From NCBI RefSeq assembly GCF_963921235.1, contig NC_086097.1, positions 110,858,001 through 110,922,000 on the forward strand: a DNA stretch of 64,000 nt, read 5' to 3'. The DNA comes from Mobula hypostoma (Eukaryota). A program made the translations under genes and the position numbers. The notes under the pieces were generated by a model. The model did not search any database and had not been told where the DNA came from. It was given only the letters and a program-made list of their open reading frames with translations. This document shows positions 1 through 61,970 of the stretch, one piece after another. How positions within the stretch are numbered: position 1 is the stretch's first letter; every line of letters begins with the position of its first letter.

Positions 1-200
1 TCTCCCAATCTACCTCACTAATATACAAGAGGCCACACCGGAAGCAGCAAACTGGGTATATGACCTCAACAGTGTTGCCTCACCTGGAAGGACTGTTTGG
101 GGCCCTGAATGGTAGTGAGGGAGGAGGTGTAGGGGCAGGTGAAGCACTTATTCCACTTGCAAGGATAAGTGCCAGGAGGGAGATCAGTGGGGAAGGAATA
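1..200 (-). mobile_element. Penelope-like element fragment (GIY-YIG region)
   Basis: Homologous to 37790-38010 (cacctggaaggactgtttggggccctgaatgg...gtgccaggagggagatcagtgggg). Confidence 0.8.
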
Positions 201-1367
201 CAATATTTGCTTGGTGTGGGAGTTAGAAGGTGGTAGTTGATGGTTGCTTTTCAGATTGGAGCCCTTTGTCCACTGCTATGCTGCAGGGATCAGTGCTGAG
301 TCCCATGATTTTGTCATCAATATTAACAATTTGGATGAGAACATAGTTACCAGATGATATTTGGTAAGTTTGCAGATAATATCAATCATTGGTGATTCAG
401 AAGTCAGCAAAGTAAGTTCTCTAGGATTATAACATGGGAGTTCCCAACCTGGGGTCCATGGACTCCTTGATTAATGGTATTGTTACATGGCATAAATAAA
501 GGCTGTGATGGCCATTATTTAAGTTTCCTGTAATTTGATTGTTAGTGGGCTGACTCACTTGGTCTGCCTTCTTCTTTTCTCTGTGACCAGCAATCGTGAA
601 CGCTCGCCTGCATTTTACCAGACACACGCTGGGCTCCAAGCTCATTCTACATTTGCATTCCAGGAGACAGGAATGACCAGAATCCTGGCTACTGGGTGCA
701 TTTATGAGACACACTGTAACTATGTTTCAACTTTGTAAAAATCCTTCTGAAGAAATAAAACTCACTCAGTGTGTTGAAAATACCCTATGTTATGAAAAGT
801 TCACTCCCCGAGTGTTCCAATCTCCCTCCAAAATCAAGTTTCAAATCCCTAATTTGTGTATTCCCAAATCACCAATTTCTTCGAAAATGTGGGTGTCTAT
901 TTAATATTTCAATAATATTTGAGAAATCAGTAGGTCCAGCATCGTGGGGACATGATAGGCTGAAACAACTATAACTTGATTGGGGATCCATCCACAACTT
1001 GCATACCACATCCCCTGCAATGAAGCCATCTGGGACTCAATTGTGAAAAGTACCATATAACCACATAACAATTACAGCACGGAAACAAGCCATCTCGACC
1101 CTTCTAGTCCGTGCCGAACTCTTACTCTCACCTAGTCCCACCGACCTGCACTCAGCCCATAACCCTCCTTGCCTTTCCTGTCCATATATCTATCCAATTT
1201 AGCTTTAAATGACAACATCGAACCTGCCTCAACCACTTCTGCTGGAAGCTCGTTCCACACAGCTACCACTCTCTGAGTAAAGATGTTCCCCGTCATGTTA
1301 CCCCTAAACTTTTGCCCTTTAACTCTCAACTCATGTCCTCTTGTTTGAATTGTTAATTGTTGAATTG

Positions 1368-1643
1368 TGGGAGGGGGAGGGGGAGATCCAAAATGATAGG
1401 AGAAATCAGGAGGGGGAGGGATAGAGCCAAGAGCTGGACAGTTCATTGGCAAAAGGGATATGAGAGGATCCCACTTTCAAATCTCTTACTAGCTCTTCTT
1501 TCAGTTAGTCCTGATGAAGGGTCTCGGCCCGAAACGTCAACTGTACCTCTTTCTAGAGATGCTGCCTGGCCTGCTGCATTCACCAGCAACTTTGATGTGT
1601 GTTGCTTGAATTTCCAGCATCTGCAGATTTCCTCATGTTTGTG
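1368..1643 (+). mobile_element. Penelope pseudo-LTR fragment with an inverted 5' segment
   Basis: 1368-1470 matches 37308-37410 in the same orientation; 1471-1643 is the reverse complement of 37140-37310. Confidence 0.8.
1506..1543 (+). ncRNA. Minimal type I hammerhead ribozyme motif
   Basis: tagtc CTGATGA a gggtctcggccc GAAA cGTC aactg: catalytic core, stem II, palindromic stem III, stem I with one mismatch. Confidence 0.75.
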
Positions 1644-2567
1644 TTCCTATACTCAATGCTCTGATTTATAAAGGCCACCATACCAAAAGCTTTCTTCACC
1701 ACCCTATCCACATGAGATTCCACCTTCAGGGAACTATGCACCATTATTCCTAGATTCCTCTGTTCTACAGCATTCTTCAATGCCCTACCATTTACCATGT
1801 ATGTCCTATTTTGATTAGTCCTACCAAAATGTAGCACCTCACATTTATCAGCATTAAACTCCATCTGCCATCTTTCAGCCCACTCTTCTAACTGACTTAA
1901 ATCTCTCCGCAAGCTTTGAAAACCTACTTCATTATCCACAACGCCACCTATCTTAGTATCATCTGCATACTTACTAATCCAATTTACCACCCCATCATCC
2001 AGATCATTAATATATATGACAAACAACATTGGACCCAGTACAGATCCTTGAGGCACACCACTAGTCACCGGCCTCCAATCTGACAGTTATCCACCACTGC
2101 TCTCTGGCATCTCCCATCCAGCCACTGCTGAATCCATTTTACTACTTCAATATTAATACCTAACGATTGAACCTTCCTAACTAACCTTCCATGTGGAACC
2201 TTGACAAAGGCCTTACTGAAGTCCATATAGACAACATCCACCACTTTACCCTTGTCAACTTTCTTAGAAGCATCTTCAAAAAATTCAATAAGATTTGTCA
2301 AACATGACTTTCCACACACAAATCCATGTTGACTGTTCCTAATCAGACCCTGTCTATCCAGATAATTGAATATACCATCTCTAAGAATACTTTCCATCAA
2401 TTTATCCACCACTGACGTCAAACTCACAGGCCGATAATTGCTAGGTTTACTGTTAGAACCCTTTTTAAACAATGGAACAACATGAGCAATACGCCAATCC
2501 TCCGGCACCATCCCCGTTTCTAAAGACATTTGAAATATTTCTGTCAGAGCCCCTGCTATTTCCACAC

Positions 2568-3402
2568 TGTTACGTACCCCGTAACTGGGTTGCCAAACCA
2601 GCAGAAATGGAACGCTCGTTGGAGTCTGGATTACTAGGAACTAATAAAGTTTTATTAATGAAATAAGTAATGCAGTACACTAATAGTAAGGATATAAATG
2701 TAACAGGTTAGCAATGATAATATACACGTATACACAGAAATAGGGTAATAGGAATCAACCAAGCTCTATCGCAGTCTAGGGGTAAAATGATCAGTCTTAA
2801 GTGAAGCAGAGTTCAGTTCAGTTTAGTGCAGTTCGCAGTAATCGCTGTTGTCGTACCATTGGAGAGGGAGAGAGAGAGAGAGATGCAATTTGGTTTCGGC
2901 AGACCTTTTTGATGTCTTTGCAGTTGGTTTCAGGCAGACCCTTTGATGTCTTCTAATCCCGCTGTGGTCACCAACTATGACCCCTCCGTTCCAGATATGA
3001 TCGTTCTTCCGCAGTGAACCTGGCACCTAGGCAAGGGCGGACACACACCCCAGGTTCCCACCGATCGTACCTTTACGCCCTGTGAGCCTCTGGTCGGTTT
3101 CCGCGAACTGGACCTCCAAACTCCCACCAACTTGTGGGGGCACACTACTCTTTCCAGGGTATCCTGGTGTCGTGCCTTAGCAAACCTGCTCCTTTTACCC
3201 CCCTGCTGGGGTACCACCTGTCCATCAAACTTCAAACAGTTCAGGTTCAAATAAACCAGTCTGTCAATAGCTGAATTGTGTTTCTTTCCCGTTAATCCCT
3301 CTCTTCTCCCTTATTAGCATTTTGAATGTTTTTCCATTGTCTTTCTTATCTCTCTCATTAGCATCATCAGTCCGGTAGCTCTGCTGAGCGTCACACATGA
3401 CA
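2568..3402 (-). mobile_element. Solo LTR (835 bp) inserted in CR1
   Basis: TGTTA...TGACA termini with acac/ccac flanks. The CR1 text (cctgctatttccacac|taacttccctcaag) rejoins when it is removed. Confidence 0.8.
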
Positions 3403-3645
3403 CCACTAACTTCCCTCAAGGTCCTAGGGAATATCCTGTCAGGACCTGACGATTTATCCACTTTTATATTCCTTAAAAGCGCCAGTACATCCTCTTCTTT
3501 AATCATCATAGTTTCCATAACTACCCTACTTGTTTCCCTTACCTTACACAATTCAATATCCTTCTCCTTAGTGAATACCAAAGAAAAAATTTGTTCAAAA
3601 TCTCCCCCATCTCTTTTGGCTCCGCACATAGCTGTCCACTCTGGA

Positions 3646-4262
3646 TGATGCCACAACTGTCTCCATGCTGTACACCGTGAATCATTGCCCAATAGAAGAC
3701 AAACAGTTGTTGGTGCCAACCTCTGTGCCTCTGGTTGGAAAGCATATTAGACCAAGGAAGGATCATGCTGCTCAGAGGAAGTATGCACGTGACAAAAGCA
3801 ATGGTCAATTACAACAGTATGTGTAGGCAACATATCTGAGAAAGCTTCTGATATGTTAGTCAGGCAGTTACTTGCAAAAGATGGCTTGGTTTTAAGCTGG
3901 AAGAGAGTTCAAGGAGCTTCAGGAAAGTTGCAAGCATTCAACTTTTGTGAGTACAAAGAACCAGAATCTACCCTGCATGCATTAAGGTTATTGAATGAAT
4001 GTCAAGTGACAGACAAAAGGCTGCTTGTGAAAATAGATGGAAAGACCAAAGCCCAGCTGGATGAATGGAAGGCCAAAAAGAAAGGAGTCAATGGAGATAC
4101 AGAAACAGAGAATTTGTCAGTTGATGTTGTGGATGAGGATGCCAAGAAGGAAGATCAGATCATAAAGGGAGCGATAGCTGGATTAATAAGTGAACTAAAT
4201 GCATCATCCCGAGATCAAGAAGCACAAACTAGAAGGAGAAAAAGAAAAAAAGAAGAAATTTG
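3646..4262 (+). pseudogene. RBM25: Processed, truncated RBM25 fragment (Pro-rich N-terminal part, RRM, start of charged region)
   Basis: LVPTSVPLVGKHIRPRKDH, then a frameshift, then TTVCVGNISEKASDMLVRQLLAKDGLVLSWKRVQGASGKLQAFNFCEYKEPESTLHALRLL...KTKAQLDEWKAKKK. No introns, no poly-A. Confidence 0.9.
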
Positions 4263-4672
4263 GCTACCACTGTCAGAACCAGTTCCTGCAGTCCCAGAGT
4301 CAACTCCTACAACCACCATGGAGGAAACCTCCAGAACCTGAGATAGTTTTCACAGCCACAAGTCTCATCTGCCAAGCAGAGTGATCTTCCTTGTCAGAAA
4401 AGACATTATCCTGGAAGAGGAAGAAATCCTCCACGGCAATCAAATCTTTAGACCTGAATGGGACAATGTAAATATTTGCTTTGTTATGGATGCCTGTATA
4501 TAACAATTGTATTATATAATATACTGTGTTTATAGCTGAGATGCATTCTATATTGAGTTGGAGTTTATAGCTAAGCAGGAAGGAGTGTTGTGAATTTAAT
4601 ATTTCAATGATATTTCAGTAATCTTGTATAGATATTGTTTGATTAAGCATTCATGCTTGTTTAAATAATTAA

Positions 4673-5243
4673 TGTAATGCGCTGTAAGGTTTCACTGCTA
4701 ATGTGATAGCCTCTCTGTAATGTTTCACTGCTAAGGTAATGGTTTCTCTGTAGCAGCAATGTTTGGGTTATGATTAGAGATAAGGGGGCTTTGGAATGTA
4801 TGCTAGCCAATGAGACGCATGTTGTTCTTTCTTGTGGGTCTGGGAGCAGGTCTTTTGTCGGCAAGAAATGAAGAGAGAAGACGCGAATAGCAAGAGTTGG
4901 TAGGCCGCCAGATGGAATGGACTAGAAGTAACGGTTCAAAGGTCAGCGACACTCAGAGAAGGTTGATGGGGAACGACTGGATGTATCTGTGAGCTCCAAC
5001 ATGCACATTAAACTGATTCATTAAAATGGGCCCTTTTTCTTTGTATTTTCTAACCCGATAGTCAAAGTAAGATTTATAAAGCTCAATCGTTAAATTGCAT
5101 ACGGTGTACTGATATTTTGTGGTTCGGATTTGTAACCGGACAACACATCACGCAGCATCCACACCAACGAGATTTTTCAGTTTGGCTGGGCCAGAGGCTG
5201 CCTTCCCCTAGGCAAAAGCGTGCTGGCGAACCTGAGGGTTACA
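4673..5243. mobile_element. Solo LTR nested in the Gypsy LTR
   Basis: TGTAA...TTACA termini; flanks ttaa/ttag (imperfect 4-bp TSD). Confidence 0.7.
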
Positions 5244-5317
5244 TTAGTTATGGGTTATATTAAAAATTACATTAATTGCATACATTATCATTATCATTAT
5301 ATGTGCATGCCTCACTA

Positions 5318-5833
5318 AAGGCTGATTTATACTTCTGTGTCAAATGGACATCGTAATCTACGCAAGTGGCCTACGCGCATTGTGAGCATTTATACCTGTG
5401 CGTTGGTGTGTCTGCGTCGCTCTGCAATTCGGGCACATCGCGCATGCACACACACCTGCCCAAGCAAGGCTTCATGGTTTTGGTAGTCTTACTCAAGGTA
5501 AACAAGTTTAAAGCGAGTGTCTTTTTTCGTAAAAGCAAAATGTGTCCTCCATAATTTCGGAGAACTGTAAAGCTTTATGGAAATTATGACAGCCAGAGTT
5601 CCCTCCCTGCCCTTCGGTCGCCCAGAGGGAAGCTATTGCAGCGTAGGAGGAAATGCGATGCTACCAAGCGGACCAATACAGTTGTTGCGGTCTGCATTGC
5701 CATGACACGTAGTTACATTTTGGGAGAGGTGCCTGTCAGGCTACGGCATAGGGATCCACATAGGCTCTGCGTAGGGTTCGCGGCTACGCCGTACTTACGG
5801 CGTTGATTTGACGCAGAAGCATAAATCAGCCTT
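5318..5833. mobile_element. MITE with ~28-bp TIRs (possibly PIF/Harbinger-type)
   Basis: aaggctgatttatacttctgtgtcaaat versus atttgacgcagaagcataaatcagcctt (2 mismatches), flanked by TA. Confidence 0.8.
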
Positions 5834-6199
5834 TACAGTAGAAGACAATGTTACACCCATATTTTGGACCCCCGTCTTCATTTGTATTAATTTAATATTT
5901 TGAAGTTACAAAACATAATAATGGGCTTCCATATCCAGGATAGAGATGCACAGATTTCCATCATCTTAACTCATGGCCAGCGTGGAATCTGGGTCTCTCT
6001 CTAAAATTATAAAGAAACAAACTTAAACCACAGACAAGACAAACAAAAATCCACACTTGTACTTTGTTTCCTTCAGACCCTTCACAAGTAACTGCAAAAT
6101 TTAGAACAAACAGTGAATATCCACGGTAAAAGACTTTAACACATTTTTCAAAGAACAAAGGACAACATTAACACTTTTCAAAAACTCTTAAATGCACAG

Positions 6200-6394
6200 A
6201 CAACATGAACTCTGCAGATGCTGGAAATTCAAGCAACACACATCAAAGTTGCTGGTGAAGGCAGCAGGCCAGGCAGCATCTCTAGGAAGAGGTACAGTCG
6301 ACGTTTCAGGCCGAGAGGGTCTTGGCCTGAAACGTCGACTGTACCTCTTCCTAGAGATGCTACCTGGCCTGCTGCGTTCACCAGCAACTTTGAT
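6200..6394. mobile_element. Foldback mini-Penelope element (two inverted pseudo-LTR ends)
   Basis: About 75-bp inverted arms at 6242-6316 and 6320-6394. TSD cttaaatgcacag (6187-6199) / ctcaagtgcacag (6395-6407). Confidence 0.85.
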
Positions 6395-6614
6395 CTCAAG
6401 TGCACAGCCTCTTAAAAGATCTCCTGGAAATTTATTCCACAGTGTACCAAAATATTTCAGTTGGTCACCTTTTCTGCTGAAGTAGAGGATTAATTCAAAC
6501 TTCCAATATTGATTGAGCAAACTCATGACAGTCTTTACACTCACTCACTCAGATACTCTCTCTCAGGTAAACTCACATGTGGCCATAACTCATGCAACAT
6601 TTGAAACATACAGA

Positions 6615-7059
6615 ACAAGAGAAGAAGCAGGATATCCCAGTGGCCACTCATCTTAATTCCACTTCCTATATGTCCATCCATGGCCTCCTCCACTGCCGTG
6701 ATGATGCCACACTTAGGTTGGAGGAACACCACCTTATATACCGTTTGGGCAGCCTCCAACCTGATGGCATGAACATCAATTTCTCAAACTTCCGGTATGC
6801 CCCCCAACACCACCCCCCCCCATTTCCCTCATTCACCTCACCTCACCAATCAACTTCCCAGCTCGGTATTTCATCCCTCCCCCTCCAGGTTTCACCTATC
6901 ACCTTATGTGTCTCTCTCCTCTCGCCCCACCTCTTAAATCTACTCCTCAGCTTTTTTCTCCAGTCCTGCCGAAGGGTTTTGGCCTGAAATGTCAACTGCA
7001 CCATTTTCCATAGATGCTGCCTGGCCTGTTGAGTTGCTCCAGCACTTTTTGTGTGTTGC
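6615..7059 (+). mobile_element. 5'-truncated Penelope-like element (GIY-YIG C-terminus plus pseudo-LTR)
   Basis: PVATHLNS...LRLEEHHLIYRLGSLQPDGMN. Perfect 15-bp TSD tttgaaacatacaga at 6600-6614 and 7060-7074. Confidence 0.9.
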
Positions 7060-24305: not shown

Positions 24306-27300
24306 ATTAAACCTATCAAGTCCTATTATATCCAGTGTTTTCTTCCAACCATCCAGAACTGATCAAGCTTTTCTTTTATGGAAAATGAAGGGAATAATAT
24401 GTTTTCGTGATTTATTCATAGATAATTGTCTCATGTCCCTTGAGCAGTTGTCTAATAAATATAATTTGTCTAGATCACATCTGTTCATATATTTACAGAT
24501 TAGAAACTTTTTGAAAGTTATTTTACCTACTTTTCCAATATCACATCAAACTGAAATTACATAAAATATTTTAGGTTTAAACCCCTACGAGAAGAGTTTA
24601 ATAGCAATTGTTTATGATTTAATTACGAAAATACATTTAGGTATGTCTGATAAAATTAAGAATGAATGGGAAAGAGAACTTCAGGCATCTTTACCCATAG
24701 AGAAATGAGAGAAAATTCTCCAACTAGTTAACACTTCAATGTGTGCCAGAAACGCTTTGATATAATTAAAGGTGGTTCATAGGGCCCACATGTCTAAGGA
24801 TAAATTAGCTCGTTTTTATGGTCATATAAATCCTGTCTGTGACAGATGTAATTCTGAGGTAGCTTCCTTGACACATATATTCTGGTCTTGCCCTCTTTTG
24901 GAAAAATATTGGAAAGACATTTTTGATATTATATCAGTAGTTTTGTGTATTGATTTACAACCTCATCCTATTACTGCAATTTTTAGACTACCAACGATAG
25001 ATAGACTTTAGTCATTTTCAGTTTGTCATTTGATTACATTTGGATCGGGACTACAGAGCGGCGTGGGAGCTGAATTCTGAAGGAAGGCAGTTTTTCTTAA
25101 AAACTTCTTCCAGTGCAAGAAGGACGAGACTGTGCAGGCGCGTGACGTAAAGGGACAGCACAGAGAGTTTAAAAAGGAGACCACCCTATACAGCGGACAG
25201 CTGTCGGAGCGGACAGCGGAGTGAGCAGTAGCAGAGTGTAGGGCTTTGGCGGTAAACAGGAAGAGGCAAGAGCAAAGCACCAACTCTTTTTCTCTATCTC
25301 CCCCCCCCCACCCCGTTTTGCGAATCGGCCCGGACAGACAGGAACAGCAGGGCTCTCACAGCTAACAGTACGAGCTAACGGTTTAAAAAGTTGTCTGTTT
25401 GGCAAGGTAAGTGGGTGAGTAGACTTATTTTTCCCGTTTTATTCCTGTAGAATTAGATAGCATGCCTGCAGGGTTAGCGCTTTGTTCAAGGTGTCAGATG
25501 TGGAATCCTGGGAGACCTCCAGCCTCCCTGATGGCCACATCTGCGCCAGGTGCACCGAGGTGCAGCTCCTCAGAGACCGTGTTAGGGATCTGGAGCTGCA
25601 GCTTGATGACCTACTCCTTATCAGGGAAAGTGAAGAGTTGATAGACAGGAGCTACAGGGAGGGAGTCATCCCTAGGCTACAGGGGTCAGAAAACTGGGTC
25701 ACTGTCAAGAGAAGGAAGGGAAATGCCCGGATAGTGGAGAGCACACCTGTGGCTGTCCCCCTCAGCAACAAATATCTTGTTCTGGATGCTGCTGAGGGGG
25801 ATGACCTGACAGGGGACGCCCACGGTGACCGCGTCTCTGGCACTGAGCCTGGCACTGTTGTGCAGGAAAGAAGGAGGGAGAAGAGGAATGCGGTAGTCAT
25901 AGTCAAGGGAACGGAGGGGAGATTCTGTGAGCCTGATAAGAGATACCCGCATGGTGTGTTGCCTCCCAGGTGCCAGGGTACGGGATGTCTCGGATCGGGT
26001 CCAGAATATTCTGAAGGGGGAAGGTGAGCAGCCAGTTGTCTTGGTACATGTTGGTACCTACGACATAGATAGGACAAAGGAGGAGGTCCTGAAGAGAGAT
26101 TTCTGGGAGTTAGGAAGGAAGCTGAGAAGCACGACCTCCAGGGTACTAATCTTGGGATTGCTACCTGTGCCACATGCTAGCGAGGGCAAGAATAGTAGGA
26201 TCAGGCGGATGAATGTGTGGCTGAGAGACTGGTGCAGGGGGCAGGGCTTCAGATTCTTGGATAATTGGGATCTCTTCTGGGGGAAGTATGACCTGTTCAA
26301 GATGGACAGGTTACACCTGAACCCGAAGGGGACCAATATCCTGGCGGGAAAGTTTAATAGAGCTGTTAGGGAGGGTTTAAACTAATTTGGCAGGGGGATG
26401 GGAACCGGAATGACAGAGCGGAGGAAGGGGAAAACAGAAATAAATATAAGATAGTGAGCAGTAAAGATGTCAGGAAAGACAGGCAGGTGATGGGGCAAAT
26501 TTGTAGCCACCGGGATGAGTTGCAGTGCAATAAAGTTGCAGTGAAATCAAAGCGAAAAGTACCAAATACTGGTCTTAAGGTGTTATACTTACATGCACGC
26601 AGCATAAGGAATAAGGTGGATGATCTTGTCATACAGCTACAGATTGGCAGGTATGATATTGTGGCCATCAGTGAGACGTGGCTAAAGGATGCATGTCTCT
26701 GGGAGCTGAACGTCCAAGGACACACGATGTATCGGAAGGATAGGAAGGTGGGCAGAGGGGAAGACGTGGCTTTATTGGTAAGAAATAATATTAAATCATT
26801 AGAAAGAGGTGATATAGGATTGGAAGTTGCAGAATCTTTATGGGTTGAGCTAAGAAATCGCAGGGGTAAAAGGACCCTGATGGCAGTTATTTATAGGCCT
26901 CCAAACAGCTGCAGTGATGTGGACTACAAAATACAACAGGAAAGAGAAAACGCTTGCCAGAAGGGCAGTGTTATGATAATTGTGGGGGATTTTAACATAC
27001 GAGTGGATTGGGAAAATCAAGTCGGCACTGGATCTCAAGAGAGAGAACTTGTAGAATGTCTGCGAGATGACTTTTTAGAACAGCTTGTAGTTGAGCCCAC
27101 TAGGGGATCGGCTGTACTGGATTGGGTATTGTGTAATGAACCGCAGGTGATTAGAGAGATTGAGGTGAAGGAACCCTTAGGAGGCAGTGATCATAACATG
27201 ATTGAGTTCACTGTGAAATTTGAAAAAGAGAAGCCGAAATCTGACGTGTCGGTATTTCAATGGAGTAAAGGAAATTACAGTGGCATGAGAGAGGAACTGG

Positions 27301-29914
27301 CCAAAGTTGACTGGAAAGGGACACTGGCGGGAAAGACAGCAGAGCAGCAGTGGCTGGAGTTTATGCGAGAAGTGAGGAAGGTGCAAGACAGGTATATTCC
27401 AAAAAAGAAGAAATTTTCGAATGGAAAAAGGATGCAACCGTGGTTGACAAGAGAAGTCAAAGCCAGAGTTAAAGCAAAGGAGAGGGCATACAAGGAAGCA
27501 AAAATTACTGGGAAGACATAGGATTGGGAAGTTTTTAAAAGCTTACAAAAGGAAACTAAGAAAGTCATTAAGAGGGAAAAGATTAACTATGAAAGGAAGC
27601 TGGCAAATAATATCAACGAGAATACTAAAAGCTTTTTCAAGTATATAAAGAGTAAAAGACAGGCGAGAGTAGATATAGGACTGATAGAAAATGATGCTGG
27701 AGAAATTGTAATGGGAGATAAGGAGATGGCGGAGGAACTGAATGAGTATTTTGCATCAGTCTTTACCGAGGAAGACAGCAGTATACCAGACACTCAAGGG
27801 TGACAGGGAAGAGAAGTGTGCGCAGTCACAATTACGACAGAGAAAGTACTCAGGAAGCTGAATAGTCTAAAGGTAGATAAATCTCCCGGACCAGATGGAA
27901 TGCACCCTCGTGTTCTGAAGGAAGTAGCTGTGGAGATTGCGGAGGCATTAGCGATGATCTTTCAGAAGTCGATAATTCTGGCATGGTTCCGGAGAACTGG
28001 AAGATTGCAAATGTCACTCCGCTATTTAAGAAGGGGGCAAGGAAGCAAAAAAGAAATTATAGACCTGTTAGCTTGACATCGGTGGTTGGGAAGCTGTTGG
28101 AGTTGATTGTCAAGGATGATGTTACAGAGTACCTGGAGGCATATGACAAGATAGGCAGAACTCGGCAATGGATTCCTTAAAGGAAAATCCTGCCAGACAA
28201 ACCTATTACAATCTTTTGAGGAAATTACAAGTAGGCTAGACAAGAGAGATGCAGTGGATGTTGTATATTTGGATTTTCAGAAGGCCCTTGATAAGGTGGC
28301 ACATATGAGGGTACTTAACAAGAGCCCATGGAATTACGGGAAAGTTACATACGTGGATAGAGCGTTGGCTGATTGGCAAGAAACAGAGAGTGGGAATAAA
28401 GGGATCCTATTCTGGTTGGCTGCTGGTTACCAGTGGTGTTCCACAGGGGTCCGTGTTGGGGCCGCTTCCTTTTATATTGTACATCAACGGTTTGGATTAT
28501 GGAATAGATGGCTTTGTGGCTGAGTTTGTTGACGATACGAAGATAGGTGGAGGGGCTGGTAGTGCTGAGGAAACAGAGAGACTGCAGATAGACTTGGATA
28601 GATTGGAAGGATGGGCAAAGAAGTGGCAAATGAAATACAATGTTGGAAAGTGTATGGTTATGCACTTTGGCAGAAGAAATAAACGGGCAGACTAAGATTT
28701 AAATGGGGAGAGAATTCAACGTTCTGTGATGCAACGGGACTTGGGAGTCCTCGTACAGGATACCCTTAAGGTTAACCTCCAGGCTGAGTCAGGCAATGTT
28801 GGCATTCATTTCTTGAGGAATAGAGTATAGGAGCAGGGATGTGATGTTTGAGGCTTTATAAGGCACTGGTGAGACCTCACTTGGAGTACTGTGGGCAGTT
28901 TTGGTCTCCTTATTTAAGAAAAGATGTGCTGATGTTGGAGAGGGTACAGAGAAGATTCACTAGAATGATTCCAGGAATGAGAGGCTTAACATATGAGGAA
29001 CGTTTGTCCACTCTTGGACTGTATTCCTCGGAGTTTAGAAGAATGAGGGGGGACCTCATAGAAACATTTCGAATGTTGAAAGGCATGGACAGAGTGGATG
29101 TGGCAAAGCTGTTTCCCATGATGGGGGAGTCTAGTATGAGAGGGCATGACTTAAGGATTGAAGGGCACCCATTCAGAACAGAAATGCGAAGAAATTTTTT
29201 TAGTCAGAGGGTGGTGAATCTATGGAATTTGTTGCCATGGGCAGCAGTGGAGGCCAAGTCATTGGATGTATTTAAGGCAGAGATTGATAGGTATCTGAGT
29301 AGCCAGGGCATCAAAGGTTATGTTGAGAAGGCATGGGAGTGAGACTAAATGGGAGAATGGATCAGCTCATGATAAAATGGCGGAGCAGACTCGATGGGCC
29401 GAATGGCCGACTTCTGCTCCTTTGTCTTATGGTCTTATTAGCCAGAAGATCCATTTTATTTAAATGGAAAGATTCTAATCCCCCTCCTACATTTCAGTGG
29501 TTTTCCCAAACTTTAACATGTTTAAACTTGGAAAAAATTAGGAGTGGTACCACTGATCCTTTGGTTAAATTTGAAGAAACTTGGAGGCCATTTATTCAAC
29601 ATTTTAATATGATGTAAGCTGACCTTTTCCAAATCCTTTTCAATAACTTTTTGTTTGTGTATAGGGGAGCAGAGTTAATGACAAATAATGATCTTAACCG
29701 ATGAACTATGGCAGACCAGTCTTTGTTTTGTTTTGTTTAGTGTAGGGGGTAAAAATTTTTTAAAAATCTTTTTCATGTTCAGTTATTAAGAGATTGGGAG
29801 GTTTAAATTAAATATGTTACTCGGAGTCTGTGTCTGTAATCCCGATCTCTTTGTATTATTATCATTGTTATGTTTATCAATTTGAAACTCAATAAAAAAG
29901 ATTGAAAAAGGAAT
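24306..29914 (+). mobile_element. 5'-truncated L1-clade LINE (24306-25041 and ~29437-29914)
   Basis: KVVHRAH...CDRC...HIFWSC zinc knuckle continues as LLARRSILFKWK after the CR1. AATAAA and A-rich end. TSD gatgtatattgta at 24293-24305 and 29915-29927. Confidence 0.88.
25042..29438 (+). mobile_element. Full-length but disabled CR1 LINE (ORF1 Zn-finger plus SGNH esterase; ORF2 APE-RT)
   Basis: 5' UTR; ORF1 from ~25462 (CSRC...ICARC, CLPGA, HVGT, DRLHLN); ORF2 EN (ISETW, IYRPP, GDFN, SDH) and RT; (tcttatgg) tail. Multiple stops and frameshifts. Confidence 0.93.
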
Positions 29915-37274: not shown

Positions 37275-38264
37275 ACTGAAGGAAGAGTGAGTAAGGGATT
37301 TGAAAGTTGGAGGGGGAGGGGGAGATCCAAAATGATAGGAGAAGACAGGAGGGGGAGGGATGGAGCCGAGAGCTGGACAGGTGATAGGCAAAAGGGATAC
37401 GAGAGGATCATGGGACAGGAGGTCCGGGAAGAAAGACAAGGGGGGGGGTGACCCAGAGGATGGGCAAGAGGTATATTCAGAGGGACAGAGGGAGAAAAAG
37501 GAGAGTGAGAGAAAGAATGTGTGCATAAAAATGAGTAACAGATGGGGTACGAGGGGGAGGTGGGGCCTTAGCGGAAGTTAGAGAAGTCGATGTTCATGCC
37601 ATCAGGTTGGAGGCTACCCAGACGGAATATAAGGTGTTGTTCCTCCAACCTGAGTGTGGCTTCATCTTTACAGTAGAGGAGGCCGTGGATAGACATGTCA
37701 GAATGGGAATGGGATGTGGAATTAAAATGTGTGGCCACTGTGAGATCCTGTTTTCTCTGGCGGACAGAGCGTAGATGTTCAGCAAAGCGGTCTCCCAGTC
37801 TACGTCGGGTCTCGCCAATATATAAAAGGCCACATCGGGAGCACCGGACGCAGTGTATCACCCCAGTCGACTCACAGGTGAAGTGATGCCTCACCTGGAA
37901 GGACTGTTTGGGGCCCTGAATGGTGGTATGGGAGGAAGTGTAAGGGCATGTGTAGCACTTGTTCCGCTTACACGGATAAGTGCCAGGAGGGAGATCAGTG
38001 GGGAGGGATGGGGGGGACGAATGGACAAGGGAGTTGTGTAGGGAGCGATCCCTGCGGAATGCAGAGGGGGGGGGAGGGAAAGATGTGCTTAGTGGTGGGA
38101 TCCCGTTGGAGGTGGCGGAAGTTACGGAGAATAATATGTTGGACCCGGAGGCTGGTGGGGTGGTAGGTGAGGACCAGAGGAACCCTATTCCTAGTGGGGT
38201 GGTGGCAGGATGGAGTGAGAGCAGATGTACGTGAAATGGGGGAGATACGTTTAAGAGCAGAGTT

Positions 38265-38492
38265 GATAGTGGAGGAAGGGAAGCCCCTTCTTTAAAAAAG
38301 GAAGACATCTCCCTCGTCCTAGAATGAAAAGCCTCATCCTGAGCGCAGATGCGGCGGAGACGGAGGAATGATAGTGGAGGAAGGGAAGCCCCTTTCTTTA
38401 AAAAAGGAAGACATCTCCCTCGTCCTAGAATGAAAAGCCTCATCCTGAGAGCAGATGCGGCGGAGACGGAGGAATAGATAGTGGAGGAAGGG
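38265..38492. repeat. About 105-bp tandem duplication (~2.2 copies) at the 5' junction of the Penelope element
   Basis: gatagtggaggaaggga starts at 38265, 38370 and 38477. Confidence 0.9.
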
Positions 38493-40207
38493 AAATTTAT
38501 GAGACAACTTTCCATGAACCAAAGCATTCTGACTATCTTTGGTCTTCAAAATGCAAATAAATCCTCAGTCAGCAGATTCCAGAACCCCTGCTAACAATAA
38601 ATGATGTCAAGCTCACCGAGTTGTCATTCCCTCACATTTTTGCTACCCTTCATAATTGAAGAAACAGTGTCTTCAGCCAGCACCAGCTCCTTTATAACAC
38701 TGATATTGTGGAGGGTAAGCGAGTCTAAAATTAGAGTACACAGGTTAAAGGTGTGAGGGGAAAGATTTAAAAGGGGACCTGATAGTGAAGAGGGTGGTGC
38801 GTATATGGAATCAGCTGCCAAGAGGCAGTGGTTGAGGCAGGTACAATAACAACATTTCAAACTCTCTTGGACAGTAATGGATGGGGAAGGTTTTAAGGGA
38901 TAAATATAGACTAATTGTGGGCATCTGGGACCAGCTTCGATGGGCACGGATAGTAGGGCCTGCTTTCATGCTGTATTACCTTATGACATTCCGCACATGC
39001 AAAGATTGATTGGAATACTTTGAGATCAACAACCATAATTTTATTAGTTTCAAGGTAGTCATGGAAAGTTAAAGTCAAGTTGAAGTCCTAAATTAGGGGA
39101 AGTCATCAGTCAGGATTTGATCCGAAAGTTGATAGGGAAAGGTAGTTTGCAGGTAAAGAGACCTGTGGCAAGTGAGGGACCATTTAAAGTGTGATTGGGA
39201 AAGTTCAAGGACAGATTGAAGGGAAAGGCTGGCAGGAGAGGGGGATCATGTCTGATGTAGGCAGGAAAAAGGTGTATGTTAGCTATAGGCAGTTAGGATC
39301 AAGCAAATTGCTTGAGTAATGTTAGGAATACACGAGAACATAAAGGAAGACAAAAAAGATAAGACATGGCTTGGGTAGATGAGGTAAAGGACAATCCTGA
39401 GAGATTCTAAAGCATATTAAAAACAAAAAGAAAGAATAGATCTCCTTAAGGATCAATGAGCTGCAGATGGGCAGTGGGTTAAATAAATACTTTGTGTCTA
39501 TCTTTAATGTTCAGAATGTCACAGAAGCTAAGGAATTAGGAGGGTGAAAGGGAGACGGGGGTTGGGAGACAGCGGGGGGGGGAGACAGCGGGGGGGGGTG
39601 GGGAGACACAGAGGAGTAGAGTACATGTTAAGCAGGATTTTAAAGCTGAAGGTAAATACAGACAGGATGAAGGAGGGAAATACAGAGCTTGGTAACTGTG
39701 GACATAACTATCATTGAGAGAGTGATTATCATTGGCAATGAAACAGACCAGAATTAATTGGTTTGGTTGCACAAGAAATGTGATTCCAGCTTATTTCACT
39801 TTCTTCAAATGAACTTGTAGCTTAAAAAGTACTGGCATGGACAACAGTACCTTCAAATATATAATCAAGCTTGAATAGCACTTCTTTTCCAGCCTACACA
39901 GTTTACACCTATAAATCCAGTTGGCTAGGACATTGTCAAAATATATGTCAATAAGGAATACAGGGGCAAAATAGTAAAGACTGTAAAATGTTCATCCCCT
40001 GCAAGTGAACAGTAAATGATATAGATTGCTATTTTCAAAGAAAATACATTTTAATTCCATATAGGCCATATGAAAATGACACAAATTGAATGGTATGAGC
40101 AAAGTCGCCCTTTAATGTAGAATCTATCCCATCTTTTGAACACACTCAAAGCAAATAATGATCAAACAGAAAAGAACAATAGCTCTTTATGTCATGTTAA
40201 ATGACAT

Positions 40208-48895: not shown

Positions 48896-49833
48896 AATAC
48901 ATAGAAACATAGAAAACCTGCAGACAAAACCTTCAGCCCACAAAGTTGTGCCGAACATTTCCCTACCTTAGAAAATACTAGGCTTACCCATAGCCCTCTA
49001 CTTTTCTAAGCTCCATGTACCTATCCAAAAGTCTCTTAAAAAAGACCCTATCCTATCCACCTCCACCACCGTTGCCTGCAGCCCATTCCATGTACTCACC
49101 ACTCTCTGCGTAAAAAGTTACCCCTGACGTCTCGTCTGTACCTACTCCCCAGCACCTTAAACCTGTGTCCTCTTGTGGCAAACATTTCAGTTCTGGGAAA
49201 AAGCCTCTGACTATCCACACGATCAATGCCTCTCATCATCTTATACACCTCTATCAAATCACCTCTCATCCTCTGTCGCTCCAAGGAGAAAAGGCCAAGT
49301 TCATTCAACCTATCCTCATGAGGCATACTCCCCAATCCAGGTAACATCCTTGTAACGCAAACACGAGGAAATTTGCAGATGCTGGAATTTCAAGCAACAC
49401 ACATAAAAGTTGCTGGTTAACGCAGCAGGCCAGGCAGCATCTCTAGGAAGAGGCACAGTTGACGTTTCGGGCCGAGACCCTTCGTCAGGATGAAGGGTCT
49501 CGGCCCAAAATGTCGGCTGTACCTCTGTGGTAACTGGAAAATTCTGCATTAGCAGCTCTTCTTTGCTCGCTGCTAAGAGCTCCCTGTGATGCATTTGAGT
49601 TTGCAAAGGTGTTAAAAGCTCCCCTTGATGCATTTGACTTTGCTAAGGTGTTAACAATTTATTTCTGTCAAAGCAATGCTCTTACAAGAATTGTAGCGCT
49701 ATGACTTCCAGGTCATCAAGGGAATGGCGGCGTAAGGAAAAGGTCTCTCAACAAAAAAGAAGGTAAACTGCCCCAAAATCGAATTTAGACAAATACTTAA
49801 TATTGCATAACTATATTAATAAAAGGGGCAAGG

Positions 49834-50820
49834 ATGATGTCTAAGAACAAGATTAAAAAGTCCGCTCCGAAGGCTGATAAACATAAAGAGACGCAGCAAG
49901 GCGACGGGCCTAGCTCCCCCACGGCAAGCCAGGACGGAGATAATGAGGGGGAATCGGTGACTCTGTCTTTGATTCTCGGAGAGATTCGTGAGTTCCGACA
50001 AGATAACAGCAAACAGCTGGAAGATATTAAAGGAGAAATAGTAAAAACTAACTCGTGGATAGATGAAGCCGAAGTGAGGATTGTTGGAATTGAAGAGAAG
50101 CTACAAAACGCCGAGGAAGTTATAGCAGAAATGCTGAAGCTACAAGAGCAGCTCCAGTGGAAACTAATAGATCAAGAAGGCCGCTCAAGAAGGGAAAATG
50201 TGAGGATTTACGGAGTTCCCGAAGGAACCGAAGGTAAACCCGGATTGATGATTCCCTTCATAGAGAAGCTGCTTAGAGAGAACCTTGATATACCGGCCGC
50301 AAAAGACCTACAGATAGAAAGGGCTCACCGCGCGTTGGCACCACAGCCTCCGGCAGGTGCCCAGCCCAGATCGATTCTGGTCAGATTTCTCAGTTACAGA
50401 ACGAAGGAAGAGGTGCTTAAACGGGCATGGCAAAAGAAAGGTTTCATGTGGAGCAACTGTAAAATCAGTTTAGACCACGACTACGCACCGGGGATCCTTG
50501 CCAGACGGAAGGAATATACGGAAACACGGAGGGTCCTGAAGGAAAACAACATCAGATTCCAGACCCTGTATCCAGCTCGGCTGAGAGTCTTTTACGACAA
50601 AGGGACAAAAACTTACGCTACGGTGGAGGAGGCAACGTTGGACCTGGCGGACCAGGGACTACCTATTAAAGTTATCACCCAACCGGAGTCGCTACTGGAG
50701 AGGATTCGGCAGAAGTCGTGGCAGTTAGTGGGGCGAGGACGCTCCACACGAACCAGAGTGTCAAACTACAAGGAAAAGCTGCAAATATTCAGATGCGAAT
50801 GTACAGAGAATACAGACTAA
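49834..50820 (+). CDS. L1 ORF1p (coiled coil plus RRM/CTD), intact, 328 aa
   Basis: EGRSRRENVRIYGVPE, IERAHR, PRSILVRF and LYPARLRV motifs. Confidence 0.9.
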   Translation: MMSKNKIKKSAPKADKHKETQQGDGPSSPTASQDGDNEGESVTLSLILGEIREFRQDNSKQLEDIKGEIVKTNSWIDEAEVRIVGIEEKLQNAEEVIAEMLKLQEQLQWKLIDQEGRSRRENVRIYGVPEGTEGKPGLMIPFIEKLLRENLDIPAAKDLQIERAHRALAPQPPAGAQPRSILVRFLSYRTKEEVLKRAWQKKGFMWSNCKISLDHDYAPGILARRKEYTETRRVLKENNIRFQTLYPARLRVFYDKGTKTYATVEEATLDLADQGLPIKVITQPESLLERIRQKSWQLVGRGRSTRTRVSNYKEKLQIFRCECTENTD

Positions 50821-51183
50821 TTAAGAGAAATGATTGAAAAGAGTAAATCGGACTTAAAGGTAAAATGAAAACTGGTAACTGAAAATAAACTAGGCGGAAT
50901 AACTTGAATGATAGCAATTTGGTCGAGACATAAATAGGAGAAAATTCTCTATGATTATTCAAACTGCTGAGGGCCCTCTAACACAGGGTGAAGATAGAGG
51001 TTATCCCTCTGAACTGAGGCGGGTCGGTGCTCAGGCCTCACTGTGGGAAGTTGGGAAAAATTTTCAAATGTTACACTTTCAAAAATGTCTAGGGTGTGGT
51101 TATATGTCTTGGTTTACTGTTGAGAAGGGATTGCTTACTGTTTGGTTAGAAAAGGAGAGTGTTTTTTTTTCTACTAGAGGAAA

Positions 51184-54100
51184 ATGCAAACTGAATTGGT
51201 AAAAATAATTTCCTATAATGTTAATGGGGTTTTGAATCCAATTAAAAGAAATAAGATCATGTCTAAATTGAAGAAAGAGAGGGCACAAATAGCCTTCCTC
51301 CAGGAAACACACATGAGCCAATCTGAACATGGAAAATTAAAAAGAATGGGCTTTAAGCATGTATTTTATTCATCATATAAATTGTCACAAAAGAGGGGTA
51401 GCTACTTTAATATCAAGTACTCTTAATTATGAACATATTTCAGAGACGAAAGACAAAGAAGGACGGTTTGTAAAAATCACAGGAAGAATAGGTACAGAAA
51501 TAACATTGCTGAATGTTTATGCTCCTCCAGGTTGTGAATGGTCATTTTATAGACACATTTTTGACCTAATGGTCAGTTCTCAAGGGGTAGTAATTTGTGG
51601 AGGGGATTTTAATATTAGATTAAATCCTGTATTAGATTCTTCAAGAATAGTTACTCAGAATAAACCTCTGACTCGGAAAATGAATTCATTGATGGAGGAG
51701 TTGGGAATTATAGATGTCTGGAGGGAATTACACCCCACTAGTAAAGATTATACACATTACTCTTTCCCTCATTCAGCCTATTCAAGGATAGACTATTTCT
51801 TTATCTTTAATACAGATAGACTCGGGATAAAAAACTGTAATATTGCAACAATTGATCTGTCGGATCATAGCCCAGTCTCTATGTCTCTAATCCTGGAAAG
51901 GAAAATGAGGAAAACATTATGGAGGCTAAATGCACATATACTCAATAACCCGAAAGTAATGGAGAGATTAAGGTGAGAAATCAAAGAATATCCAGACCTT
52001 AATGACACGGGAGAAACATCACCAGTAATCTTATGGGATACATTTAAAGCTGTACTGAGAGGGAAAATTATTTCCATTACCACTCACATGAAAAAGATCA
52101 ATGCACAAAAATTAGTAGACCTTCAAGGAAAATTAAAACAACTTCAAGTTGTAGATAGCAACAAAAGTAATTCAAATCAAAAACAGGAAATTAGGAAATT
52201 GCAAAGTGAAATTGACGATATTTATACGTTGGAAACTCAAAGAAATTTTCTTTACCTGAGACAAAAGAATTATGCAGTAGGAGGTAAATCAGCTAGATTA
52301 TTAGCATATAAATTACGAAAACAACGAGCAGACGATACAATTCATAAAATAAAGAATCCAAAGACAAAGCTTGTGGAGAGTACAATAGGGAAAATTCAAG
52401 AGAGTTTTGAAACATATTATCGAGAGCTGTACTCCCAATCCCGGGCCCCCAATGAGCCCTATATAGACAGTGTATTGAATTTTTTAGATCTAACTAAACT
52501 TACAGATTTACAAAATGAAAGTTTATTAGAACCAGTAACTGTCAAAGAACTGAACGTGGCCATCTCTAGGTTAAAGGCTGGAAAGTCCCCGGGTTCTGAT
52601 GGGTTTACCTCAGAGTGGTACAAGTCCCTGAAGACACAGTTAGCCCCATTACTACTTAACACCTTTAACTGGATCTTGCAGAGAGGAGAAACTCTACCTT
52701 CCTGGAGAGAAGCGATTATTTCAGTTATTCCTAAAGAGGGTAAAGATAAACTAGAATGTGGCAATTATCGGCCAATTAGTGTTCTTAATTTAAATTACAA
52801 ACTATTTACATCTATATTAGCGCGCAGATTGGAAAAGCTTTTACCTGGCCTAATCCACTTAGACCAGACTGGATTTATTCAACAAAGACAAACACAGGAC
52901 AACATAAGGAGAACTCTGCACATATTACAACAGGTTAATAAGAACGAGACAGAGACAATGGTAGTAGGATTGGACGCTGAGAAAGCTTTTGATTCGGTTA
53001 GTTGGGCATTCCTATGCAGAGTGTTAGGAAGATTCGGCTTTCGAGAAAAGTTTATTAAAGTAATTCAGACTCTATATGACAGCCCTACAGCCTGAATTAA
53101 GATAAATGGGGACCTCTCTGACTCCTTCATCTTAGAGAGAGGCACTAGACAGGGATGCCCAATTTCTCCTTTCCTTTTTGTGCTATATATTGAACCGCTT
53201 GCCCAACTAATAAGACAGAGCGAAATCGTAAAAGGTATCAAGGTGGCAGGGATTGAACAGAAAGTGGCGTTATTCGCAGATGATGTTTTGGTCTATCTGA
53301 GTGAACCGGAAAAATCATTTATAGGATTGTTTACACTGTTGGATGACTTTGGGAAAATATCAGGTTATAAAATAAATGTAAAGAAAACGCAGGTTATGTC
53401 CCTAAATTATACACCATCCAAAAAAATTGCAGGATACATACGATCTTAAGTGGGAAGCTAAATCATTAAAATATTTAGGAATAACCCTGCCGAAGGATCT
53501 TTCAACACTGTCACAGGTAAATTATGGGCCATTAATCTCAGAGATAAAAGCAGATATGCATAGATGGAATCTTATCCCCTTTTTAAGTTTAAATTCAAGG
53601 ATAAATACTATAAAAATGAATATTCTTCCTCGGTTATTGTATCTTTTCCGTACTTTACCCGTGGAGGTGGATGATAATCAATTCAGGGAATGGGACAAAT
53701 GGATTTCCCGCTTCATTTGGCAAGGAAAGAAACCTAGAATTCGATATAACACCTTACAGTTAGGGAAGGAAGGAGGAGGTATGGTTCTTCCTTGCCTGAG
53801 AAATTATTTTTATGCCTCACAGATAACCCCTCTGTTATATTGGTGTAATAGGGAATATAAGGCTAGATGGAAGGAAATAGAATTTGGATTAGTTGACAGT
53901 TTTCCTCTACAGGCCTCAATAGCTGACAAAGGATTGATGGCCCAGTTGGAAAAATTTAAAAACAGTTGGATAAATCTTACATTAAAAGTATGGCAGAAGG
54001 TGGTTAATTCATGTGGAATTAATAACATGTTAAAACTCTTTAGATGGTGTGCATATGATACCGAATTCCTTCCCAACAGAGGAGATAAAAGATTTGAGCT

Positions 54101-54968
54101 ATGGATAAAGAAAGGTCTTACAACCTACCTCTCATTTATAGATAAAAGTGTATTACAAAGTTTCCAAATCCTGCAGGACAAACATGGCCTAGAACACAAT
54201 GAATTTTTTAGGTACCTTCAAGTACGAAACTATATTAACCAGAGTTGTAGATATACAGACCTATCAACAGTAGAATTAGAATTTTTCAAGATTCTGAATT
54301 CGGCTTGCAGTTCAATACCTAGTAAATCAGTTTCTCGATTATATAATGCACTCTCCCATGCTAAAAATGTAAATACACTGTATATTAAAGAACAGTGGGA
54401 GAAAGAAGCGGGGTTGGTACTTTCAGAGGAGGCTTGGGGGAAAATCTGCAGCTTTCAATGGTCCTCGACTAATTCTTTGACTTGGAGAGAACATTGTTGG
54501 AAAAACATTATAAGATACTTCAAGACCCCATATCAGGAAAAATATAAAGATACAAACGTGACGTGTTGGAGAAGGTGCGGCTCCAAGGAGGCAAATCATT
54601 TTCATATTTTCTGGGATTGCCCTAAATTAAGTCTATATTGGGAAGGTATTCATAGAACATTAGTTAAGGTACTTAGGTCCCAGATACCTCTGAACTTTGA
54701 GACGCTCTATTTGGGGCATGTATTGTTTCTTGAACAGAAGGAAGATATAAAGTTGCTGCAGGCCCTCTTAGCGGCAAATAAGAAATCAATCACTAGAAAG
54801 TGGCTAAATCCAATACCACCTACATTAGAAGACTGGCACGAAATTATCTTGGAAATATTTAAAATGGAAAAGTTGACTTACTCCCTGAGAATTCAAAAAG
54901 AAAAATTTTATCAAATCTGGAATAAATGGATTGAATATATAACCCCAATGCGAGCAGACTTTAGATGA
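51184..54968 (+). pseudogene. L1 ORF2p (APE endonuclease, RT, Zn knuckle) with two frameshifts and two nonsense codons
   Basis: SYNVNG, LQETH, GGDFN, SDH, NYRPIS, LDAEKAFD, QGCP, LFADD, CWRRC...HIFWDC. Frameshifts near 51380 and 53425; TGA at 51974 and 53093. Confidence 0.93.
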
Positions 54969-59891: not shown

Positions 59892-60185
59892 GGGCACGTG
59901 GCCAAGTGGTTAAGGCATTGGACTAGCGACCTGAAGGATGTGAGTTCGAGCCCCAGCCGAGGCAACGTGTTGTGTCCTTGAGCAAGGCACTTAATCACAC
60001 ATTGCTCTGCGATGACACTGGTGCCAAGCTGTATGGGTCCTAATGCCCTTCCCTTGGACAACATTGGTGTCGTGGACAAGGGAGACTTGCAGCATGGGCA
60101 ACTGCCGGTCTTCCATACAACCTTGCCCAGGCTTGCACCCTGGAGAGTGAAGACTTTCCAGGCGCAGATCCATGGTCTCGCAAGA
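59892..60185 (+). mobile_element. tRNA-derived SINE with a CORE-like segment
   Basis: A box TGGCCAAGTGG, B box GAGTTCGAGCC, then gtgtccttgagcaaggcacttaa. Perfect 12-bp TSD tgtggggagggt at 59880-59891 and 60186-60197. Confidence 0.9.
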
Positions 60186-60339
60186 TGTGGGGAGGGTCAG
60201 GCCCAGGGGTAGCGTTAGGTAATGAGGGTGGAGGATTCACTGCGAAGGGAGGTGGGGTGGCAACTGGCAGCATTGGGGGGGGGAGGGGTTCTGCAGGACT
60301 TTGCAGTGGTGGGGAGGGCTGAAAGAGGAACTGAACAGC

Positions 60340-61010
60340 TGGTGATATTAGGTGATTTGACCCCTTGGTGGGGTGAGAGCTTGGGTTTATGGGGGTGTGT
60401 AGGAGGGTTGGAGATGTTAGGTTTAGGGGTAGGAAAAAGGACCGGGGATGCGAGAGGGAATGGTGGGGGCAGCTGTTACGTAAGCCCCTTTGTGGGGTGT
60501 GGCTTGGGTTATTTGGGATGCTGTTCAGTTTAGTTGGGGTGCGCAGGCCATTGGAAGTTAGGATTAGGGTGAAGTGTAGGGTTGGGGATGTTTGTGGGGT
60601 GGCGTGTTAGTGTTAAACTGGTGATGTGGGGTGACCTTGGCCCCTTGGTGGAGAGAGGGCTCAGGTTTATGGCGGTGCGTAGGATGGGTCAAGTTGTTAG
60701 ATTTAGGGATAGGGCTGAGGAATGTGGATGCAGGCCTCCCCATATGGGGGGGGGGGGAGAGCAACATGGGACCCAGTGTTAAGTAGGCCCCTTTGCGGGG
60801 GTGTGGCCAGGGTTATCTGGGGGAGTGTTGTCTGGTTTAGTTTGGGTGTGTGGTCTTTTGGATGTTAGGATTTTAGGTTGGGGGGGTAGGGTCAAGGGAT
60901 GTCTGGGGGGTGCCGGGAGGTAGAACTGGTGGTGTGGGGCGAGTTTGGCCCCTGGCGAGAAGAGGACTTAGGTTTATGGGGGTGTGAGGATGTTAGGTTT
61001 CAGGGCAGGG
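60340..61010. repeat. Degenerate ~300-bp G-rich tandem repeat (~2.3 copies)
   Basis: gcccctttg...gtgtggc at ~60485 and ~60787; cccct(t)gg at 60361, 60641 and ~60949. Confidence 0.75.
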
Positions 61011-61438: not shown

Positions 61439-61970
61439 TAGGGTTGCCAACTGTCCCATATTAGCCAGGACATCCCGAATATTGGGCTAAATTGGTTTGT
61501 CCCATACGGGACCGCCCTTGTCCCGTATTTCCCCTGCTAAGGTAGAGCGTTCCTATGAAACCGTTCATAAGCCGAAATAGCGTAAAGTGAAGAAGCATTT
61601 ACAATTAATTTATAGGGGAAAACATTTTGAGCATTCTTAGACCCAAAAAATAACCTACCAAATCATACCAAATAACCCATAAAACCTAAAATAACACTAA
61701 CATATAATAAAAGCAGGAATGATATGACAAATACACAGCCTATATAAAGTAGAAATAATGTATGTACAGTGTAGTTTCACTTAATAGAATCAGGAAGATT
61801 AAGCCAAAACCGATTTGTAGAAAAAAAAATCGGCACATACACGCACACGCACACAGGTGCCCACGCAAGGCTTCATCGTCATGGTAGTCTTTCTCGGGGT
61901 AAACACAAGTGTCCCATATTTGACTGCTACTTTTGTTCCTTATTTGGCAGTGAGAAATTTGGCAACCCTA
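61439..61970. mobile_element. hAT-type MITE
   Basis: TIRs TAGGGTTGCCAA...TTGGCAACCCTA; 8-bp TSD ttcataca/ttcgtaca. Confidence 0.88.

Follow-up and report, generated by a model that had tools for sequence, protein, structure and literature searches.

The 64,000-nt stretch of DNA analysed here (the window) contains a chimeric element at positions 3641–5920, in which a spliced internal fragment of RBM25 mRNA (3650–4258, forward strand) is followed by the pol-like tail, polypurine tract (PPT), and long terminal repeat (LTR) of a retroelement that is probably of the Ty3/Gypsy class. The element is very likely a degraded member of a non-autonomous LTR family that arose via template switching onto RBM25 mRNA. 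Both an LTR-mediated capture and a mobile, multi-copy chimeric family had been put forward in a sequence-only reading of the window, and both proposals are supported: the RBM25 piece is spliced, lacks poly-A, is cut at both ends, and joins the tail at an 8-nt in-register microhomology, and it occurs in high copy number in three species. The chimeric element in the window is old and dead, and the RBM25-carrying family is probably large. The capture mechanism is already known, and the unusual part is the scale of the amplification.

The fragment at 3650–4258, as delimited by protein alignment and exon edges, comprises an alternative 5′ exon extension, the RRM, and the next exon of RBM25. Translated alignment to a shark RBM25 (P0222, Heptranchias perlo) gave 74–76% identity from 3811 to approximately 4257 and 62–66% identity from 3650/3665 to 3805, the two parts being in different frames owing to a frameshift near 3806–3810; a 12-nt deletion is also found near 4190. 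The closest RBM25 protein was another from H. perlo (P0121, 79%), compared with at most approximately 72% for bony-fish and tetrapod matches of similar coverage, and the host is therefore most likely a cartilaginous fish. Among the 36 short matches examined for exon edges, 17 start at 3934 and 22 stop at 4095, most of the latter running on into a Val-type donor read-through. A genomic exon (L001, an amniote-type RBM25 exon that was the one locus found in 86 candidate metagenome stretches and was used for exon edges only) extends from the position of 4096, with an AG acceptor, to approximately 4257, with a GT donor. The RBM25 piece reads through both 3933/3934 and 4095/4096 without an intron, as judged by the edges in the protein matches and by L001, and the spliced state of these junctions is thereby confirmed. 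Two introns are firmly lost, and a third was probably lost at 3706/3707, where the isoforms P0121 and P0222 differ by four residues. At the 3′ side, the piece stops at an exon end and leaves out the last approximately 590 codons of full-length RBM25, and no A-run of at least 8 nt occurs in 3601–6000. The fragment is thus what had been described from the letters, namely an intron-free internal piece of RBM25 with no poly-A. A 16-codon extension (3656–3706) is found in the shark RBM25 proteins P0121, P0222, and P0223 and is absent from the aligned bichir and lizard proteins, and it may represent a shark-type splice form of RBM25.

To place this locus among its relatives, contigs from DNA runs of three organisms (X1, X5, and X9) and from a probable RNA run (X16) were compared with 3570–5320 at 80% likeness. 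The RBM25 match ends at 4257/4258, and the tail matches other copies from 4270. In each DNA run, 266–298 contigs match from 4270 on with a different 5′ neighbour, and the consensus of these loose ends upstream of 4270 (agreement of approximately 0.7) is free of stops in the frame of the junction-crossing ORF and has AGAAGAAA in register, as compared by eye. RBM25 therefore replaces part of the internal sequence of the element at the 3′ side. The 8-nt microhomology (AGAAGAAA, 4251–4258, forward strand) is common in register to RBM25 and to the element's own upstream sequence, and it is followed by 11 nt of uncertain origin (4259–4269, forward strand), which match the X1 loose-end consensus at 4 of 11 positions by eye. 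The 8-nt match and the 11 poorly fitting nucleotides are consistent with a switch within a brief region of identity, accompanied by additional or diverged nucleotides, as described by Tan et al. (2016). The junction also preserves both reading frames. An earlier placement of a direct RBM25-to-tail join at approximately 4262 holds in that a PPT and an LTR do follow, while the edges are refined to 4257/4258 and 4270 with the 11 nt between them.

The pol-like tail (4270–4451, forward strand) was delimited by three-frame translation and has frame breaks near 4330 and 4347, both of which are indels relative to many other copies. The tail is tentatively labelled as Gypsy integrase on the basis of the earlier reading and the general LTR features; this label was confirmed by none of the protein searches, in which the queries were short and decayed. 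A word search gave no candidate homologue of the tail and the Atlas search gave none, and no tail-bearing protein was recognised in 110 near-length matches, none of which covered more than 91% of the query. A single repeat-protein match to the tail among the representatives was rejected as spurious. Downstream of the tail, the predicted PPT and LTR were borne out, as 12 of the 13 nucleotides at 4573–4585 (forward strand) are purines and directly precede the TG at 4586 that begins the LTR. A 25-nt pattern of the PPT region had no match in metagenome, viral, or prokaryote contigs. Many contigs skip from several points within 4318–4472 to 4537, and approximately 200 contigs per run come in at 4537 from a different sequence, which suggests related LTR subfamilies that have the PPT region in common but not the 3′ untranslated part.

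Two nested insertions, to which no strand was assigned, divide the 3′ LTR into three parts. The first part (4586–4672, forward strand) starts with TG and has a summed contig depth of approximately 73,000 in X1. Next comes a solo LTR from a different family (4673–5243), which has TGTAA...TTACA ends and 4-bp flanks that match at 3 of 4 positions. This segment is identified as nested because 260–297 contigs per DNA run depart at 4670 into sequence that matches 5246–5275 at 23 of 30 positions by eye, and the same loose-end match marks the second part of the LTR (5248–5315, forward strand). The second insertion is a MITE (5316–5835) with 41-nt terminal inverted repeats that are 85% alike; a related piece lies elsewhere in the window at 61832–61905. 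The last part of the LTR (5836–5920, forward strand) is suggested by terminal inverted letters and a candidate target site duplication (TSD), and it would have a degenerate end with TA for CA. The 3′ LTR probably ends at 5920, a position supported by these features, as the contig comparison covered 3570–5320. The candidate right TSD (5921–5924, forward strand) matches 887–890 at 3 of 4 letters. Within 3570–5320, sites with A in the window and G elsewhere exceed the mirror class of T and C (56 of 560 A sites versus 29 of 481 T sites; Fisher p 0.023), a weak hint of a G-to-A strand bias with CpG decay or deamination as candidate causes.

On the 5′ side, the element appears to survive in remnants that are separated from the RBM25 piece by a LINE. 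The probable remnant of a 5′ LTR (891–928, forward strand) corresponds to the first 38 nt of the LTR and matches 4586–4623 without gaps at 31 of 38 positions. It is the best non-self match to the LTR start in the window, with the next best at 24, and none of 200 shuffles reached 31; it could also be a stray piece of a common LTR family unconnected with the element. The 4-bp sequence immediately outside it (887–890, forward strand) is a tentative candidate for the left TSD, with a 3-of-4 match to 5921–5924 that has a chance of approximately 0.05 at a fixed place. The absence of a 5′ LTR and of a TSD that had been reported for this locus is therefore probably wrong. Following the LTR remnant is a probable pol-like internal remnant with two stops (929–1052, forward strand), the frame of which resumes at 3641, beyond the LINE, and which may resemble the segment that follows the Gypsy protease. 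There was no Pfam match to 918–1052, and the one PDB match was a chance match. RBM25 had no match in 700–1100, and reading 975–1030 as the RBM25 N-terminus was accordingly ruled out.

The intervening LINE (1053–3643, reverse strand) is 5′-truncated, represents a later insertion, and has RVT_1 matches in 1583–2086 and 2068–2640; it is taken to be of CR1 type, as in the earlier reading. Between this LINE and the RBM25 match, which begins at 3650, are element-side letters (3641–3649, forward strand), of which 3641–3643 are common to the CR1 end. In each DNA run, 90–120 contigs depart at 3643 into other sequence. Moreover, 9 of the 31 listed long contigs begin aligning at 3640–3641, several of them with 56–316 further 5′ letters unlike CR1. 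On the simplest reading, which is considered likely, the CR1 landed in the element 9 nt upstream of where RBM25 starts, and most of the 5′ LTR and the gag region went in an independent deletion. The 5′ side had been regarded as cut away by the CR1; more likely, the CR1 sits inside the element, with 5′ remnants surviving at 887–928. The CR1 itself contains a short repeat at approximately 1367–1643 and a solo LTR of a third family (2568–3402), which has TG...CA ends, 4-bp flanks matching at 3 of 4 positions, and no other copy in the window. No Rfam match was found in 1–7000.

The RBM25 piece is represented by dozens of distinct contigs per site. At each of 17 listed RBM25 sites, 56–125 X1 contigs carry a letter other than that of the window (the counter saturates near 128), and the counts at these sites are similar in X5 and X9. 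All eight of the listed long X1 contigs overlap at 3843–3926, each differing by 13–19% from the copy in the window. The exon junction at 3933 is crossed by five of the eight listed contigs in X1, five of eight in X5, and all six that lie in RBM25 in X9, and that at 4095 by one of eight, two of eight, and two of six, respectively. Summed X1 depth at the listed RBM25 sites was 2,365–28,092, compared with 4.7–10.2 for one long contig. The claim is held to dozens of contigs because summed contig depth is no copy number and the compared stretch (3570–5320) holds no single-copy control; hundreds of copies or more are likely. We infer that other copies have the same RBM25-to-tail junction as the copy in the window. 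Contigs from X16, which is probably RNA and may be DNA, match the RBM25 part at approximately 83–86% and are not assignable to the window copy.

Several other origins of this arrangement were weighed against template switching. One is that splicing or read-through came first, such that the element lay in or near RBM25, the tail became linked to the exon donor that follows the KKEE codons, and the fused transcript then recombined into a two-LTR element. The RBM25 piece does end only a few nucleotides from an exon end, as given by the L001 donor and by the intron read-through in P0121. However, the element sequence before the junction is purine-rich and lacks a pyrimidine tract for an acceptor, and the 5′ junction at approximately 3650 falls inside an exon. 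In addition, template switches near exon junctions are themselves reported in the available text of Tan et al. (2016; PMC5131818), and a splice-first origin is considered quite unlikely.

A very unlikely origin is that the RBM25 piece was amplified as part of a separate family and that a later deletion between neighbouring insertions created the junction with the LTR element tail. No contig bridges 4258–4270 among the 32 listed contig pieces (79,541 further pieces), the 11 nt there fit neither side, and the 2.6-kb CR1 separates the 5′ side, all of which would be compatible with such a deletion. On the other hand, both frames are preserved at the junction, which also has the 8-nt in-register match. 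Summed X1 depth in the junction bin (4219–4277) was 6,486, against 4,670 in the preceding bin, and is thus not at a single-copy level. Furthermore, no loose end departs at approximately 4258 among the six best-supported per run, and an LTR start in matching orientation precedes the CR1.

An ordinary processed pseudogene of RBM25, made by a LINE and adjoining an LTR element by chance, is highly improbable. LINEs are abundant in the window and many retrocopies are known from cartilaginous fishes, but the piece has no poly-A, stops approximately 590 codons short of the end of RBM25, and is high-copy in three species. Because the 3′ end of the mRNA is missing, this origin is already refuted unless a deletion is added to it. 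Capture at the DNA level, as by a Helitron or Pack-type element, was ruled out because the introns are missing from the RBM25 piece.

The 162-aa open frame (3853–4341, forward strand) that crosses the 3′ junction had been described as a chimeric RRM/integrase-tail ORF. The frame is indeed open over the junction, but it is a relic and makes no credible gene. It begins inside the RRM, past the first RRM strand, and gives no Pfam match at E 0.01, whereas a 182-aa stop-to-stop frame matches RRM_1 at 1.5e-5. It contains a G-to-N change in an RNP1-like motif and a 4-residue deletion, a frameshift lies just upstream, and its last codons arise from the frame break near 4330. At 17 listed sites, taken from 40 of 281 difference rows, the copy differs from the majority by 13 nonsynonymous and 4 synonymous changes, where the expected nonsynonymous fraction is 0.79 (p 0.77). 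This is the proportion that neutral decay predicts. With the majority letter, 10 of the 13 nonsynonymous sites encode the residue of shark RBM25, and the family founder was therefore close to the parent gene. The copy at 3650–4258 has decayed neutrally from a founder near the parent RBM25. That the 162 codons, being open and in frame across the junction, encode a working chimeric gene at this locus is hardly credible given the partial RRM, the upstream frameshift, and the 13:4 private changes.

The preferred origin by template switching may be set out as follows. RBM25 mRNA would have been co-packaged with element RNA, and reverse transcriptase would have jumped to the RBM25 mRNA and back at short shared sequences. 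Approximately 610 nt of RBM25 would thereby have replaced most of pol, with the LTRs, the PPT, and the pol tail retained. The chimera may then have been multiplied in trans by helper elements, probably before the split of the three sampled species. These helpers would be autonomous relatives, probably represented by the contigs that run upstream of 4270 without RBM25. Later, the copy at 3641–5920 would have been stripped of most of the 5′ LTR and of the gag region, and a CR1 would have entered the internal region; two insertions nested in the 3′ LTR, and the copy decayed neutrally.

The founder chimera may also have encoded one continuous element protein, with the RNA-binding domain of RBM25 in frame at both junctions and the RRM aiding the element, but this is considered unlikely. 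If true, a captured RRM that, for example, bound or protected element RNA would account for the abundance that the element reached in cartilaginous fishes. Such a role is compatible with the in-frame 3′ junction, the continuity of the frame over the CR1, and the likeness of the majority letters to the parent gene, but all three features are also expected if a young founder multiplied in a neutral burst.

LTR-mediated retrocopies of animals have been described previously (Tan et al., 2016, Genome Res 26:1663; PMC5131818). As in the cases given in the available text of that study, the RBM25 piece is a partial spliced mRNA that is cut at both ends, lacks poly-A, and replaces part of the internal ORF of the element, with microsimilarity at the 3′ switch point. 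The microsimilarity is 8 nt here and had a median of 6 bp in that study, where extra letters at some junctions and further copying as a non-autonomous element are also described. Unlike the retrocopies covered by that text, the present case involves dozens of contigs per site in three cartilaginous-fish-type genomes and an old, dead copy.

Among vertebrates, crocodilian endogenous retroviruses (ERVs) have captured KIT-ligand (CrocERV29) and nectin3 (CrocERV31), with nine and six ORF-bearing copies, respectively, under purifying selection, according to the accessible text (PMC4299795). The RBM25 case is similar in that a vertebrate LTR element with host mRNA has been copied as a lineage and is common to several species. 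It differs from the ERVs, as far as they are described in that text, in that the carrier looks like a Gypsy-type element, the number of copies is much greater, and the window copy shows no selection. Host mRNA fragments in LTR elements are also represented by HERV-K/FAM8A1 and maize Bs1, as cited in the available part of PMC5131818, with carriers, hosts, and genes that differ from those of the RBM25 case.

A survey of LINE-made retrocopies counts 14,081 copies in cartilaginous fishes and, in its main text, gives MIPOL1, SUDS3, SDF2L1, SLU7, and ZNF276 as the top parent genes (bioRxiv 10.64898/2026.06.26.734816). RBM25 is absent from that main text, and the supplements may list it. The RBM25 piece resembles the LINE-made processed pseudogenes of that main text as an intron-free gene copy in a LINE-rich genome, and it differs from processed pseudogenes in its lack of poly-A and of the mRNA 3′ end and in its LTR context. 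In the mostly open-access literature covered, which was searched partly by title and abstract, no description of an RBM25-carrying LTR family was found.

The single locus is ordinary, and the interest lies in a family that spreads a piece of a splicing-factor mRNA across several cartilaginous-fish genomes. The scale of amplification exceeds that of the vertebrate cases compared, as far as the available texts of Tan et al. (2016) and the crocodilian ERV study describe them. RBM25-carrying LTR copies would inflate the retrocopy counts that are usually attributed to LINEs, which suggests that other top "retrocopied" genes of sharks and rays may be element-borne too. The many diverged copies also make it testable whether the captured domain was selected for the benefit of the element and whether element-directed small RNAs reach the host RBM25 mRNA.

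The remainder of the window is dense with LINE remnants. These include a near full-length L1-type LINE (49801–54968, forward strand) that has an ORF1 with a weak Transposase_22 match, an endonuclease, RVT_1, and few breaks, and a CR1-type LINE (25461–29342) with a GDSL-esterase-like domain in ORF1 and an endonuclease. A frame at 10723–11160 matches ALKBH8_N, but its sequence points more to the C-terminal part of the reverse transcriptase of a LINE than to ALKBH8. A Penelope-like remnant with a weak GIY-YIG match lies on the reverse strand at 37568–38545, and similar pieces are found at 66–275 and near 6589–6987. Just downstream of the chimeric element, a short repeat (6242–6394) consists of two 75-nt copies arranged head to head, 96% complementary and 3 nt apart. 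The region at 60001–61000 is GC-rich (0.56) with a strong G skew and overlaps a low-complexity frame of 188 codons at 60040–60606.
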